This document shows positions 39,247-43,841 of a stretch of DNA of 64,000 nucleotides, one piece after another. Each line of letters starts with the position of its first letter. Position 1 is the stretch's first letter. The DNA is from Candidatus Thorarchaeota archaeon (GTDB lineage: Archaea; Asgardarchaeota; Thorarchaeia; Thorarchaeales; Thorarchaeaceae). The stretch lies in the NCBI GenBank assembly GCA_048884965.1, contig JBHLQH010000009.1, positions 66,496-130,495 of the forward strand, in the 5' to 3' direction. A program made the translations under genes and the position numbers. Below the pieces are notes generated by a model. That model was not told the DNA's origin, did not search any database, and worked only from the letters and a program-made list of their open reading frames with translations.

Positions 39247-40077
39247 ATGAAACGAACAATCGCAGCCATGCTCCTATTCGGTCTTGCGTTGGGTCTACTC
39301 CTTCCTTCACTTGCTGTCGCTGTTGACAACAAGATGATTATGGGAAATGGTAAAGGTGGTCCACCAAGTGGTGGTGAGCCTGAACCCATTGTTTACTACA
39401 CAGACTCAGGTCAAGACAAATGGGCTGTCATTATTGGTATCTCAGATTATGATGGACAGTCATCAGACCTCTGGAATCCTCATAATGACGCTCTTGAGAT
39501 GAAGCAAGTCCTTGAAGCAGACGGATATAACTACGCTCTGGCACTAAACAGTGCTGGTACACGTGATAACTTCTACCTGCTTATGGATTGGCTAATTGCA
39601 CATGAAGGGCCAAATTCTGAAGTCGTCTTCTTCTACTCTGGACACGGCTCAAATACTCAGGACGGTAGCTGGGACACAGATATCGAGTCTGATGGCTATG
39701 ATGAGTGCCTAGTATCCTGGGACCTCCGTGCGATACCTGATTCCTATATGGCAAGCAAGTTCGCTGAGATGGAGTCCAATCACATTGCAGCTATTTTCGC
39801 AAGCTGCATGAGTGGTGGAATGTTTGACGAGCCTTATGAAACCCGAAGCGGAATGCTTTACATTGCTGCTGCTGAGGCTGACCAGTACGGTTGGGACTAT
39901 CTCGACCTACAGAACACCTTGTTCATCTACTGGTTCCTCGACCAAGGCATCATCAACGGTCCCTACAACAACTTCCAGGACGCCTTCTGGTACGCAAGAC
40001 CAATTGTCATTGCTGAGCAGCCTGACAGCTGCCCAACCATGCTTGACAACCTTGGTGTCCCCTTCTACTGCAAGTAG
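39247..40077 (+). CDS. Secreted C14 peptidase (metacaspase-like)
   Basis: Signal peptide; WAVIIGISDY, NDA..M, FFYSGHG (His), DGYDECL, ASCMSG (Cys). Start moved to ATG 39247. Confidence 0.88.
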   Translation: MKRTIAAMLLFGLALGLLLPSLAVAVDNKMIMGNGKGGPPSGGEPEPIVYYTDSGQDKWAVIIGISDYDGQSSDLWNPHNDALEMKQVLEADGYNYALALNSAGTRDNFYLLMDWLIAHEGPNSEVVFFYSGHGSNTQDGSWDTDIESDGYDECLVSWDLRAIPDSYMASKFAEMESNHIAAIFASCMSGGMFDEPYETRSGMLYIAAAEADQYGWDYLDLQNTLFIYWFLDQGIINGPYNNFQDAFWYARPIVIAEQPDSCPTMLDNLGVPFYCK

Positions 40078-40083
40078 TGAAGT

Positions 40084-40116
40084 AAGGGCTTTTTGCCCTT
40101 CTTCTTTTTCTTTTTT
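40084..40116 (+). terminator. Hairpin plus long U-tract terminator after metacaspase
   Basis: AAGGGC-TTTTT-GCCCTT followed by CTTCTTTTTCTTTTTT. Confidence 0.72.
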
Positions 40117-40302
40117 GATAATCAATCTTTGAGATTCTGCGTTGCTATTGCCATTTTGATATCAGTTTCTGCCCTCTGAGTGGGAGGCAATTTTACTGTA
40201 AATAAAGAGAGCTTGCTATCCATCCCCTTTTTTGGTTACTTCTATTGATTGCCTTTTTCTATTCCATTAGTTAGTCAATTGGCGTGAAGCAATATTTTCC
40301 TA

Positions 40303-41331
40303 CTATTCAGTGCTTGTATCTTCATCATCTGGTTTATCTCGGAACATGAATCGGGATTCATCCTTTGCCAACAGAAGGATGTATACAGTCGCACCAAGTG
40401 TAATCGGTATGACAAATGCAAAGATGGATGCTGGAAGATTGATCATTCCGAAACCTATCACCGTTATGATAGTGCTAGCAGTGATGACAGCCATTGAAAT
40501 GACGAGTCGTTTCATTTCCTTCTTAGTCTTCTTGATTTTTTGATCTTGTGCTATTTTCGGATCGGCGTATCGCATGAATTCTTCTATCTGATCATCATCG
40601 ATTCTCTGCCTTCCAAATACCCTACTGCTCGCGACCACTGGAGGAACACGATAGATGGCCTCGATTCTCTGATTTACTATATCTGTTTTTGATTCGAATA
40701 TGAATGGGAGCAGGCAAAGACCAAATATTAACAGCATGCTGATTGCTATGATAAAAGATCCCAGTACTCTATCCTCGAAAATGGAAAAGGGGTCGAATCC
40801 AGAGGTACTCAATCCAAATGTTGTACCGAAGAGAAACGAAGCTCCTGTTCCTGCTAGTAGGATGATGGGATGAATTCTTTTCAGAGCCATGATTTTGGTG
40901 GCTAGAACAATCTCGCCATCAATAGGATTATTGCAGATGTCCTGAATAGCAGTCTTGGACATGAGAATAGCAGTATGCAATGGGGATCTACTGCTTGTAC
41001 ATACAAGATTTGGAGATTCTCTTAGCCATAATTCAACTTCGTCATCGAAACCAATCCTTGCTTTCGCTTTCTCAAGAATAAGGTCGATCTGCGGGTCGTT
41101 GAATGGATGTCTATACCGTCTGATTAGAAGAACTAGCCATAGAATGTAGCAACCAATTCCTACTATGACGCTTAGTATAGTCCACTCTACCAGAACAAAA
41201 TTGAGATTGAAGAGCCATACCGATAGAAATCCCCAGAGAAATCCAACGGCATAATTGGTTCCTCCTGTTGTTCCTTTGAACAGAGGTACTGATTCCTCTG
41301 CATCAGGGTAATATCCTTCTGGCAATGGCAT
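40303..41331 (-). CDS. Multi-pass membrane protein (degenerate M48/HtpX-like layout, no HExxH)
   Basis: Several TMs; a soluble region reminiscent of M48 topology, but the zinc motif is absent. Confidence 0.6.
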   Translation of the reverse strand: MPLPEGYYPDAEESVPLFKGTTGGTNYAVGFLWGFLSVWLFNLNFVLVEWTILSVIVGIGCYILWLVLLIRRYRHPFNDPQIDLILEKAKARIGFDDEVELWLRESPNLVCTSSRSPLHTAILMSKTAIQDICNNPIDGEIVLATKIMALKRIHPIILLAGTGASFLFGTTFGLSTSGFDPFSIFEDRVLGSFIIAISMLLIFGLCLLPFIFESKTDIVNQRIEAIYRVPPVVASSRVFGRQRIDDDQIEEFMRYADPKIAQDQKIKKTKKEMKRLVISMAVITASTIITVIGFGMINLPASIFAFVIPITLGATVYILLLAKDESRFMFRDKPDDEDTSTE

Positions 41332-41720
41332 CAGCCTCTCTCACAACCACACTCGCCATATTGGATATCGAGTATTAAGCATTCTGATGATCTTGGTTTT
41401 CCCCTCTGCTGCATTTGTGAAGTAAGCCCGTCTTTCCCTTTCTTCTTCCTATTTGCTTGTCGTATTTATTCTCACTCAGAATCCTAGCAATCAGGAAGTA
41501 TGTATCTGGGTCTTTCATAGTCCAGAATTCTCTAGATTTATATGCTTTCAAGTGGGGCATCAGAATACAATGTCAGACTACAGAAGCCTAGCGTCCTCGA
41601 ATCTGAGGACACTCAATAGCACACTATCTCAGTTGAGATAAGAGCTTGAGAAAGACTTCAGAGCCTCTGACATGCGATTTTTTCTGGATTGGACTGTTAG
41701 GGGCAGTCGATATTAGGAAA

Positions 41721-41809
41721 GCTGGTGTGGCTGAGTGATCAAAAGCGCGAGATTCAAACTCTTGGTCGGGTAGCCGACAACGTAGGTTAGAGTCCTACCA
41801 CCAGTACCA
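41721..41809 (+). tRNA. tRNA-Leu(CAA)
   Basis: Acceptor GCTGGTG/CACCAGT plus ACCA; anticodon arm CGAGA-TTCAAAC-TCTTG; long variable arm GTCGG-GTAG-CCGAC; T arm GTAGG-TTAGAGT-CCTAC. Confidence 0.88.
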
Positions 41810-41811
41810 AC

Positions 41812-41899
41812 GGCGCAGTGGCAGAGTGATCGAACGCGCTGGGCTTAGAACCCAGTCCTTAGTGTGACATCGCAGGTTTAAGTCCTGCCTGCGCCACCA
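41812..41899 (+). tRNA. tRNA-Leu(TAG)
   Basis: GGCGCAG/CTGCGCC plus ACCA; CTGGG-CTTAGAA-CCCAG; long, imperfect variable arm; GCAGG-TTTAAGT-CCTGC. Confidence 0.88.
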
Positions 41900-41901
41900 T
41901 T

Positions 41902-41987
41902 GCACCAGTAGTCAATCGGAAACGACGATGGACTGAGACTCCATGAGGGCAGCCTCTTTGCAGGTTCAATTCCTGTCTGGTGCACCA
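41902..41987 (+). tRNA. tRNA-Leu(GAG)
   Basis: GCACCAG/CTGGTGC plus ACCA; ATGGA-CTGAGAC-TCCAT; variable arm GAGG-GCAG-CCTC; GCAGG-TTCAATT-CCTGT. Confidence 0.88.
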
Positions 41988-41992
41988 ATCAT

Positions 41993-42078
41993 AGGCTAGT
42001 GGCGGAATATCAGACGCGCTTGGTTTAAGCCCAAGTCCGTTAGTCGGGTTGTAGGTTAGAGTCCTACCTAGCCTACCA
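41993..42078 (+). tRNA. tRNA-Leu(TAA)
   Basis: AGGCTAG/CTAGCCT plus ACCA; CTTGG-TTTAAGC-CCAAG; variable arm CCG-TTAGT-CGG; GTAGG-TTAGAGT-CCTAC. Confidence 0.88.
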
Positions 42079-42079
42079 A

Positions 42080-42153
42080 GGAGCAGTCGTTCAACGGGAG
42101 GACGCGCGACTGAAGATCGTGGGATGGTGGTTCGACTCCACCCTGCTCCACCA
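42080..42153 (+). tRNA. tRNA-Phe(GAA)
   Basis: GGAGCAG/CTGCTCC plus ACCA; D stem GTTC/GGAC; CGCGA-CTGAAGA-TCGTG; GGTGG-TTCGACT-CCACC. Confidence 0.92.
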
Positions 42154-42212
42154 AATACTATCGCCAATCGATTAGTTTCACACACAAGATGGTATCCTAG
42201 CAGAAATGTAAT

Positions 42213-42737
42213 ATGCTGAAGAACGAAGTCTATGTTATGGACGATACCAAGAAAAGAAGTATACCGTGTCTTCAGGTTGGTGACCCTGCGCCTGATTTTG
42301 TTCTCCCCGCGACCAACGACCAAGATGTTCATCTCTACGATCTATTAGACAATAATGTCGTCCTTGTATTCTTCTCAGATACGTTCACTCCATTTGCTAC
42401 AGGACAGGCAGATTCTTTCCTTCACCTGCATGAGTCCCTGAGCAATCTCGGTGTGACCTTTATTGGTATAGCCACAGAGCCCTTAGCGACACTGGAAACC
42501 TTCATTGAGGATCTTGAACTCCCATTTCTTATGGCCAGTGACTTCGATCGTAAGGTTTCGAAAGCCTATGGAGTCTATACTGATGTGCTCAGGAACTTGA
42601 GATGTGTCGCAAGACCGAGTATTGTGGTAGTTGATGTCGATGGTTTGATCGATTACATCTGGATCGATGAAGGTACAGAGGGAATACCCCCTGTACAGGA
42701 GATTGCAGACAGGATAATCAAGTCTAAACTGGATTGA
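42213..42737 (+). CDS. AhpC/TSA peroxiredoxin-like protein lacking the peroxidatic Cys
   Basis: L.VGD.APDF.L, VVLVFF...FTPFAT, SDFDRKVSKAYGV, ARPS..VD.DG.I.Y. The start may be ATG 42237. Confidence 0.82.
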   Translation: MLKNEVYVMDDTKKRSIPCLQVGDPAPDFVLPATNDQDVHLYDLLDNNVVLVFFSDTFTPFATGQADSFLHLHESLSNLGVTFIGIATEPLATLETFIEDLELPFLMASDFDRKVSKAYGVYTDVLRNLRCVARPSIVVVDVDGLIDYIWIDEGTEGIPPVQEIADRIIKSKLD

Positions 42738-42740
42738 TCC

Positions 42741-43841
42741 CTATACAGCGAATTGCTCGAGGTAAATGGTAACGATTTGAGTAATAGCGAAGAGTATCAA
42801 TAGAAAAATACCTTCTGTCCGAGTAACTCTCCAATCACGCCGAATAATGTAGAAGAATATCAGGGCAACTGCAAGGGCAAAAAACATAATCACTACATTT
42901 CCTAGATCGAGAAGAATTGTAGTTGGTATAAACAAGGAAATTAATCCTAGACCCAATGTTATATTCACAATATTGCTCCCTATCACATTGCCAATAAGTA
43001 ATCGCCCAAACCCTCGCCGAGCACTATTTACTGATACAGTAAGCTCAGGGAGTGATGTTCCGAGCGCTACTATGACCAGGCCAATGACTCCTTCTTGGAT
43101 ACCCCATGTGATTGTTATGAAATCGCTACCTGCAACAACCAGCTGTGCGCCAAGTACTATGAAAGCAGATGATACTATAACAAGAAGGGCTCCTCGAATT
43201 GATTCTGATCGTCTTCTTCTCTCTTGATCTTGCGACTCCACTGAAGAGTCTTGGTCCTTACTTTTAGCCATGTCACGCGGCTTCGGGAAAAGCCCACGAA
43301 GTGAGGTCAGGAACCGTAATCTAATGAGATAGTCAACAAATACATGGAACTGATAGCAAGACTCACACTCTTCCTGTCGTGTGATGAGAAATGAGAGGTA
43401 GGCGAGGAATAGTATCAACAGAAATCCTGCTTCCCAGATTGCAATGACCCCGGGTGTCAGGGGATCAAGCAGGAAAACTGCTAACGCTCCAATGACTAGA
43501 ATCATCACTTTTGCGTCTCGATCAATCACCACTGCGTTCGATGCTAATGGACTAATGATTGCACTGACCCCTATGATCAAGGTCAGGTTGATGAGTGTAC
43601 TGCCTATTATGTTAGTGAAGGCAAGCTCTGGTTTCCCTGCAATGACGGCTGTTGAACTGGCGACAATTTCAGGAAGGGAGGTTCCAATTGCTACGATTGT
43701 GAGGCCAATGAAGAGTTCAGAAACTCCCAGATTACGTGCGAGCTTTGATGCAGACTCAACGAAGACATCTGAGCCGTAGATAAGCAGAGCTAGACCCAAT
43801 GAGAAAAGACCAAGGTTTGCCACGATTAGTTCTAGCTGCAT
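42741..43841 (-). CDS. Ca2+/Na+ antiporter (CaCA, YrbG family)
   Basis: Two alpha repeats: GTSLPE...NIIGS..IN and GTSLPE...GNVIGSNIVN. Confidence 0.93.
   Translation of the reverse strand: MQLELIVANLGLFSLGLALLIYGSDVFVESASKLARNLGVSELFIGLTIVAIGTSLPEIVASSTAVIAGKPELAFTNIIGSTLINLTLIIGVSAIISPLASNAVVIDRDAKVMILVIGALAVFLLDPLTPGVIAIWEAGFLLILFLAYLSFLITRQEECESCYQFHVFVDYLIRLRFLTSLRGLFPKPRDMAKSKDQDSSVESQDQERRRRSESIRGALLVIVSSAFIVLGAQLVVAGSDFITITWGIQEGVIGLVIVALGTSLPELTVSVNSARRGFGRLLIGNVIGSNIVNITLGLGLISLFIPTTILLDLGNVVIMFFALAVALIFFYIIRRDWRVTRTEGIFLLILFAITQIVTIYLEQFAV

Follow-up and report, generated by a model that had tools for sequence, protein, structure and literature searches.

Loss and replacement of the G19:C56 elbow pair in leucine tRNA genes of a Thorarchaeota operon

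A compact operon of five tRNA genes in a Candidatus Thorarchaeota genome encodes three leucine tRNAs, Leu-CAA, Leu-UAG and Leu-UAA, in which the G19:C56 pair that joins the D-loop and T-loop at the elbow is missing. The operon lies in a 64,000-nt stretch (hereafter, the window) that corresponds to positions 66496-130495 of contig C9 (JBHLQH010000009.1) in a 4.09-Mb, 99-contig assembly (GCA_048884965.1) estimated to be 95.7% complete. On balance, these three genes probably encode working, if redundant, leucine tRNAs that form part of a horizontally acquired accessory set, composed of the operon and an array of about 19 tRNA genes on contig C4, and in which the outer elbow pair has been replaced by A and U. 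Under this model, G19:C56 would have given way to A19:U56 in Leu-UAG, to U19:A56 in Leu-UAA and to A19 or U20 opposite A56 in Leu-CAA, and the change is most simply explained as drift that is tolerated and largely compensated, as is common in phage and bacterial tRNAs. G18, G19 and C56 are taught as near-universal bases of tRNA, and many enzymes, as well as the ribosome, dock on their pair.

Elbow bases and structural integrity of the operon tRNAs

The five genes abut on the forward strand at window positions 41721-42153 (433 nt), in the order Leu-CAA (41721-41809), Leu-UAG (41812-41899), Leu-GAG (41902-41987), Leu-UAA (41993-42078) and Phe-GAA (42080-42153), with spacers of 1-5 nt and an encoded CCA in every gene. 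ARAGORN and the Rfam model RF00005 are concordant on all five, with scores of 49.5-57.6 bits (52.7 for Leu-CAA, 54.5 for Leu-UAG and 49.5 for Leu-UAA) against a gathering score of 29, so that the three rewired genes score much like their canonical neighbors, and the four leucine anticodons constitute a complete set for all six Leu codons. The D-loops of Leu-CAA (AGUGAUCAAA), Leu-UAG (AGUGAUCGAA) and Leu-UAA (AAUAUCAGA) lack GG, and their T-loops (UUAGAGU, UUUAAGU and UUAGAGU, respectively) lack C56. Leu-GAG, with T-loop UUCAAUU, and Phe retain both GG and UUC and present canonical elbows. This pattern of joint loss and joint retention, first pointed out in the initial annotation of the window, was confirmed by ARAGORN, by RF00005 and by direct reading of the sequence. 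A genome-wide ARAGORN run, yielding about 55 tRNAs, identified the same three genes as the only ones without C56, and as the only ones lacking both the D-loop GG and C56.

The D-loop register, described as ambiguous in the initial annotation, was set by homology to canonical D-arms of equal length. The canonical Leu D-arm of another Asgard family is the 17-nt GCCGAGUGGUCAAAGGC, and the arms of Leu-UAG (GCAGAGUGAUCGAACGC) and Leu-CAA (GCUGAGUGAUCAAAAGC) have the same length, so that both can be read as carrying a G19 to A change with G18 retained. The Leu-CAA arm matches the Asgard canonical arm except for this change and the conversion of C12:G23 to U12:A23, and Leu-UAG is 82-84% identical over 44 nt to its canonical Leu(UAG) counterpart in another Asgard family, where AGUGGUC stands in place of the AGUGAUC of the operon gene. 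The Leu-UAA D-arm (GGCGGAAUAUCAGACGC) is equal in length to the bacterial and phage Leu arm GGUGGAAUGGYAGACAC, with GG changed to AU, and G18G19 therefore became A18U19 in this gene.

With the register thus fixed, Leu-UAG places G18 (41828) and A19 (41829) opposite U55 and U56 (41879), a Watson-Crick compensated state, whereas Leu-UAA places A18 (42009) and U19 (42010) opposite U55 and A56 (42058), a state that is compensated and yet has lost G18. Leu-CAA combines G18 (41737) and A19 (41738) with U55 and A56 (41789), leaving an uncompensated A.A mismatch unless U20 (41739) slides in to pair with A56. The proposed covariation between positions 19 and 56 hence holds for Leu-UAG and Leu-UAA, but not for Leu-CAA, and three related genes of which two are compensated provide no statistical evidence of covariation within the window alone. 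The 18-nt T-arms of Leu-CAA and Leu-UAA are identical and the D-arm of Leu-CAA is of the type found in Leu-UAG, suggesting that Leu-CAA is probably a mosaic of a Leu-UAG-type D-arm and a Leu-UAA-type T-arm.

Outside the elbow, the leucine tRNAs of the operon are well preserved. A scripted count of stem pairs in the four Leu tRNAs returned 79 standard pairs out of 80, and at 12 of 20 stem positions both sides have changed between paralogues with pairing maintained. By our own count, the three rewired tRNAs show seven departures from 12 classical invariant positions, all of them at 18, 19 or 56 and none at U8, A14, A21, U33, G53, U54, U55, A58 or C61, a clustering that exceeds chance. Their T-loop core is intact (U54-A58, U55, R57 and G53-C61, closed by GG/CC), the anticodon loops of the Leu tRNAs are canonical, and the cloverleaf is the minimum-free-energy fold of Leu-CAA and Leu-UAA. 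The Levitt pair between positions 15 and 48, initially described as intact in all five tRNAs, is present in four of them, with G15:C48 in Leu-CAA and Leu-UAG covarying to A15:U48 in Leu-UAA and the same A15:U48 pair in Phe; Leu-GAG presents U15 and U48 in the Rfam alignment. The stem pairing, the two-sided differences between paralogues, the T-loop core and the anticodon loops agree with the earlier proposal that these structures are under selection, and they lend reasonable support to the view that the three rewired genes are structurally constrained tRNAs rather than decaying copies.

The 19:56 pair in bacterial and phage tRNAs

Swapped elbow pairs were surveyed in about 98 distinct tRNAs, chosen by their T-loop alone among the matches listed for a T-arm pattern permitting A56 or U56 in metagenome and species-genome collections, and consisting mostly of bacterial tRNA-Arg from many phyla. 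In this sample, A56 is accompanied by U19 in 29 of 39 tRNAs, and U56 is accompanied by A19 in 51 of 59, by G19 (a wobble pair) in eight and by U19 in none, an association with a Fisher P of ~1e-16, uncorrected for relatedness. G18 is retained in 97 of the 98 tRNAs, with a single tRNA-Arg lacking it, as does Leu-UAA. The same relationship was apparent in phage tRNAs from IMG/VR. A pattern specifying only the D-loop (GUGGCNGARURAUC...) matched nine phage tRNA-Cys, all nine with U56, and the A56 T-arm pattern matched nine phage tRNAs (Arg and Asn), all nine with G18 and U19, while the tRNAs matched by the U56 T-arm pattern (Trp, Arg, Met and Pro) mostly carry G18 and A19.

Together, these surveys strongly support the notion that replacement of G19:C56 follows a strict A:U or U:A exchange, and that this is a genuine and widespread compensatory rule across bacteria and phages. 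G18, G19 and C56 are still described as conserved in reviews (PMC7912444, PMC4810234).

The sample also revealed groups of tRNAs in which such elbows are established. Swapped A19:U56 and U19:A56 pairs are the norm in several tRNA-Arg isoacceptors of species genomes from the Halieaceae, Pyrinomonadaceae, Planctomycetia, Verrucomicrobiota, Bradyrhizobium and others, often within an identical T-arm, GYAGG-UUWRAGU-CCURC. The combination of A19 with A56 seen in Leu-CAA occurs in the sample only in a family of bacterial class II tRNA-Tyr(GUA) (5 of 98, from contigs of metagenomes or metagenome-assembled genomes), which joins the D-loop AAUGAAAAA (G18 A19, with no U) to the T-loop UUAAAGU (A56) and whose A19.A56 elbow is apparently uncompensated, like that of Leu-CAA. 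Among the phage sequences, two tRNAs with a GCA (Cys) anticodon, 84 and 87 nt in length (IMG/VR L008:12743-12826 and L016:6686-6772), combine a class II-like extra arm with an A19:U56 elbow.

Genome context, distribution and redundancy of the operon

The genome-wide inventory revealed two distinct kinds of tRNA gene. The host's own genes are scattered, mostly intron-bearing and canonical in their GG and UUC motifs, and next to them the genome contains two compact, mostly intron-free arrays: about 19 genes at C4:160883-163299 and the five-gene operon. Leu, Phe, Ile and Cys tRNAs are missing from the C4 array and the operon provides the first two, so that both loci look like parts of a single accessory set. 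Their leaders are also related. A TATA-box-like TTTATAT read in the sequence at 41537-41543 on the forward strand may act as the archaeal promoter of the operon, and the region comprising this promoter and a leader of about 150 nt with a hairpin (GCGUCCUC...GAGGACAC; 41521-41714, forward strand) aligns locally (score 71) with the sequence leading into the second block of the C4 array (C4:161759-161964), with the TATA box and its flanks, AATGTCAGA and the hairpin arms in common. BLAST alone did not pick up this relatedness. The operon displays the features of an accessory array, being dense, co-oriented, patchily distributed and duplicating housekeeping isoacceptors, and the published threshold for an array (at least 20 genes) is reached only when the operon and the C4 array are summed.

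Two further tRNAs of this genome have irregular elbows. The tRNA-Pro(UGG) of the C4 array (C4:161293-161368) has a D-loop without GG (AAUAGCGA) and retains the T-loop UUCAAGU, leaving an apparently uncompensated elbow. The host tRNA-Cys(GCA) at C41:23842-23917, with a partial second copy at C45:1-74, combines the T-loop UGCAAUU (G55) with a D-loop devoid of GG (AGUAGCUGA), and a housekeeping tRNA therefore also departs from the canonical elbow.

Three more assemblies of this species also carry the operon (GCA_048883605.1, GCA_048883545.1 and a Logan contig of SRR30758813); two of the copies match base for base, and the third differs at one array position. BLAST searches of 61 and then 400 Asgard species genomes did not detect the array, returning only partial matches to canonical Leu and Arg tRNAs, and a T-arm pattern yielded three matches outside the source genome in the 400 Asgard genomes, none of them a tRNA and all within the control count. 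Scans of IMG/VR with the two unusual T-arms and the two unusual D-arms matched Cys, Arg, Trp, Pro, Met and Asn tRNAs and no Leu tRNA, the Leu-UAA D-arm pattern producing 49 chance matches and no tRNA, and no copy of the array was present among the matches listed in the metagenome and genome scans. In four to five relatives harboring the orthologous locus, recognizable by a peroxiredoxin/Na-Ca-exchanger gene pair with 62-77% protein identity, the upstream DNA is different and contains no tRNA.

Several of these observations weigh against functional tRNAs, and they are those expected if three redundant copies were drifting under relaxed selection towards pseudo-tRNAs, with the elbow changes as early damage and the host Leu tRNAs doing the work. 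Canonical, intron-bearing Leu tRNAs are already available from the host (UAG, GAG, CAG and UAA were read directly), and the array copies are therefore redundant, with nothing forcing them to work. In the collections searched, the operon is restricted to one species, and its long-term conservation is thus not demonstrable. Each of the rewired genes also presents irregularities. Leu-UAG has an A12.C23 mismatch in the D-stem and a weak variable arm with no stable stem, and its cloverleaf (-29.5 kcal/mol) is not its minimum-free-energy fold (-33.2 kcal/mol). Leu-UAA has lost the G18 that swapped-elbow tRNAs nearly always keep. Leu-CAA sets A19 opposite A56, whereas GUGAUC-type D-loops like its own come with U56 in the nine phage tRNA-Cys picked by their D-loop, and phage tRNA-Trp with a GUGAU D-loop core also have U56, though they were selected for U56. 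The sole strain polymorphism in the array, a G to A change at 41782 (G49 of Leu-CAA), breaks the T-stem pair G49-C65, and irregular tRNAs occur in the sister C4 array too, as exemplified by its Pro-UGG. Decay would not, however, be expected to leave 79 of 80 stem pairs and all other invariant bases intact, to cluster seven deviations on three elbow positions instead of scattering them, or to compensate two of three elbows by different Watson-Crick solutions, and equal states are found in bacterial tRNA-Arg and tRNA-Tyr across many phyla, whose genes would hardly all be pseudogenes. We consequently view drift towards pseudo-tRNAs as rather unlikely, while granting it appreciable weight.

The operon is located at a site of variable composition. 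The peroxiredoxin/Na-Ca-exchanger pair (window 42213-43841) is conserved across the Thorarchaeota, and the stretch immediately preceding the peroxiredoxin gene is different in each relative compared, indicating a variable insertion site. The neighboring genes encode a caspase-like peptidase, a membrane protein, the peroxiredoxin and the Na/Ca exchanger; integration of a provirus was rejected, as no integrase or viral genes are found among them, and short direct repeats at 41481-41502 and 42194-42215 were too weak to be accepted as a target duplication around the array. The gene for the 342-aa membrane protein (40303-41331, minus strand, with no Pfam family) is itself flanked by two copies of one sequence, at 40051-40117 and 41391-41455. 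One copy forms the genuine 3' end of the Peptidase_C14 caspase-like gene, including its terminator hairpin, and the other is a decayed version of about 65 nt and about 70% identity; a genome of the same genus presents a single copy only. By this arrangement, the membrane-protein gene looks like a one-gene cassette inserted with target duplication next to the tRNA operon.

Partner enzymes and relation to known systems

The genome encodes a single leucyl-tRNA synthetase (LeuRS) on contig C46, a full-length match of archaeal type to TIGR00395 (992 bits), and a profile search of the genome revealed no second LeuRS; a dedicated enzyme for the foreign tRNAs was accordingly discarded. In Haloferax volcanii, leucine identity depends on A73 and on A47c and G47d in the loop of the variable arm, the identity set also comprising the long variable arm and U47h at its base, whereas in Escherichia coli leucylation is sensitive to the G18:U55 and G19:C56 contacts (PMC9976931). 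A73 is present in all four array Leu tRNAs, and their variable loops (GUAG, UUAGU, GCAG and UUAGU) each include AG, a feature also of the host and other Asgard Leu tRNAs. The base preceding position 48 is U in three of them and A in Leu-CAA, with 47h numbering uncertain and the Leu-UAG arm devoid of a stable stem. Since archaeal Leu identity is read from A73 and the variable loop, an archaeal host should tolerate changes in the tRNA-Leu elbow better than a bacterium, and charging by the single archaeal-type LeuRS should work, as this enzyme would recognize its tRNAs by A73 and by the tip of their long variable arm, not by the elbow.

The remaining steps towards a working tRNA can be outlined in similar terms. 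The operon would be expressed from its TATA-like promoter, and the transcripts would fold, be processed and charged, and be used in translation. RNase P RNA is present in the genome. Both RNase P and the ribosome stack against the flat surface that the 19:56 pair presents (PMC4810234), and a Watson-Crick swap should preserve this surface. With the T-loop core that builds the elbow intact, the L-shape and the flat stacking face should be kept. The suggestion in the initial annotation that an altered elbow could change how RNase P, the L1 stalk or modification enzymes recognize these tRNAs is speculation, as these partners dock on the very surface that such a swap keeps. Trm56 (PF01994), the stand-alone methyltransferase that generates Cm56, a hallmark of archaeal tRNAs, was not found in the genome or in any of 18 genomes of the same family, and was detected in 7 of the 12 Asgard families sampled outside this one, suggesting that this particular constraint on C56 may be missing in the lineage. 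Escape from Cm56 methylation was rejected as a cause of the elbow changes on the same grounds.

The elbow could also have been rewired adaptively, hiding it from a toxin, a defence nuclease or a modification enzyme that reads G18, G19 and C56 or the T-loop, and providing a backup set under attack or stress, in the manner of bacterial L-arrays or phage tRNAs. The membership of these genes in an accessory, nearly complete tRNA set, the recurrence of swapped elbows in phage-encoded tRNAs, the induction of a bacterial array under translational stress (PMC8421152) and the occurrence of three different elbow solutions within one operon would all be in line with such a role. No candidate nuclease or partner was identified, however, and the canonical elbows of Leu-GAG, Phe and nearly all C4-array tRNAs mean that the set as a whole would not be protected; with Trm56 not found in the family, an escape from Cm56 would have no target. 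We consider adaptive rewiring doubtful. A more specific version, in which all three rewirings were selected and the acquired backup Leu tRNAs are resistant to, or separately handled by, an elbow-reading toxin, viral nuclease or maturation enzyme, appears slightly more doubtful still, and the same low expectation attaches to one of its components, whereby the D-loop AUC would offer either A or U to position 56 and serve as a register-flexible contact.

Staphylococci harbor extra, non-proteinogenic tRNA-Gly isoacceptors that lack the D-loop GG and have an altered T-loop. The initial annotation drew an analogy to these species, and the operon tRNAs might by extension donate Leu and Phe to something other than the ribosome, much as the staphylococcal tRNAs serve the cell wall. 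Besides the altered elbows, such a use would fit the exclusive presence in the operon of Leu and Phe tRNAs, on which L/F-transferase and some cyclodipeptide synthases act. A search for Leu_Phe_trans (PF03588) and CDPS (PF16715) genes returned no match in the 95.7%-complete genome, Fem-type and other transferases not being searched for, and the neighboring genes suggest no such pathway. Moreover, the four anticodons form a complete decoding set, and Leu and Phe are just two of the amino acids missing from the C4 array. The analogy is not upheld by these results, and a non-translational use strikes us as highly improbable.

The value of the operon lies in its composition, as it places three natural variants, a compensated swap with G18, a compensated swap without G18 and an apparent A.A mismatch, beside a canonical sister. 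It thus provides a ready panel for the elbow requirements of archaeal LeuRS, RNase P, Pus10/TrmI-type enzymes and the ribosome, and would carry little weight for the biology of the organism unless the tRNAs are expressed.

Compared with canonical archaeal class II tRNA-Leu (RF00005 and Asgard representatives), the array Leu tRNAs are alike in their cloverleaf, long variable arm, A73, CCA and 17-nt D-arm. The anticodon arm and 5' variable arm of array Leu-UAG are 82-84% identical to those of Asgard Leu(UAG) and Leu(GAG), with the AG tip of the variable loop in common. They differ in the change of G19 to A (Leu-UAG and Leu-CAA) or of G18G19 to AU (Leu-UAA) and in the change of C56 to U or A, and in that the array genes are intronless and tightly packed, whereas those of the host are dispersed and contain introns. 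The elbow relates them instead to the swapped-elbow tRNAs of bacteria and phages, with which they share the T-loops UUAGAGU and UUURAGU, the same T-arms (GYAGG...CCURC) and the A56-U19 and U56-A19 combinations, as well as, in Leu-UAG, the association of D-loop AGUGAUC with U56. These tRNAs are mostly tRNA-Arg of Proteobacteria, Acidobacteriota, Planctomycetota and Verrucomicrobiota, together with phage tRNA-Cys, Trp and Arg, and no archaeal Leu tRNA was present among the sampled cases.

As a genomic element, the accessory set resembles bacterial tRNA array units (PMC4758250) and cyanobacterial L-arrays (PMC8421152), which are likewise dense, co-oriented and CCA-encoding, duplicate the housekeeping set, include some irregular members and have a patchy distribution suggestive of transfer. 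It departs from them in its Asgard host and in being split into two loci with related leaders; a 2019 survey reported archaeal tRNA clusters only in Halobacteria and Methanobacteria (PMC6333295). Unlike the staphylococcal tRNA-Gly, these tRNAs mostly restore the 19:56 contact instead of losing it, and their T-stem and full anticodon set fit ribosomal use. The three leucine tRNAs of this operon are an archaeal (Asgard), class II, accessory-array addition to the swapped-elbow tRNAs common in bacteria and phages, and represent a real, fairly ordinary variant of that group.

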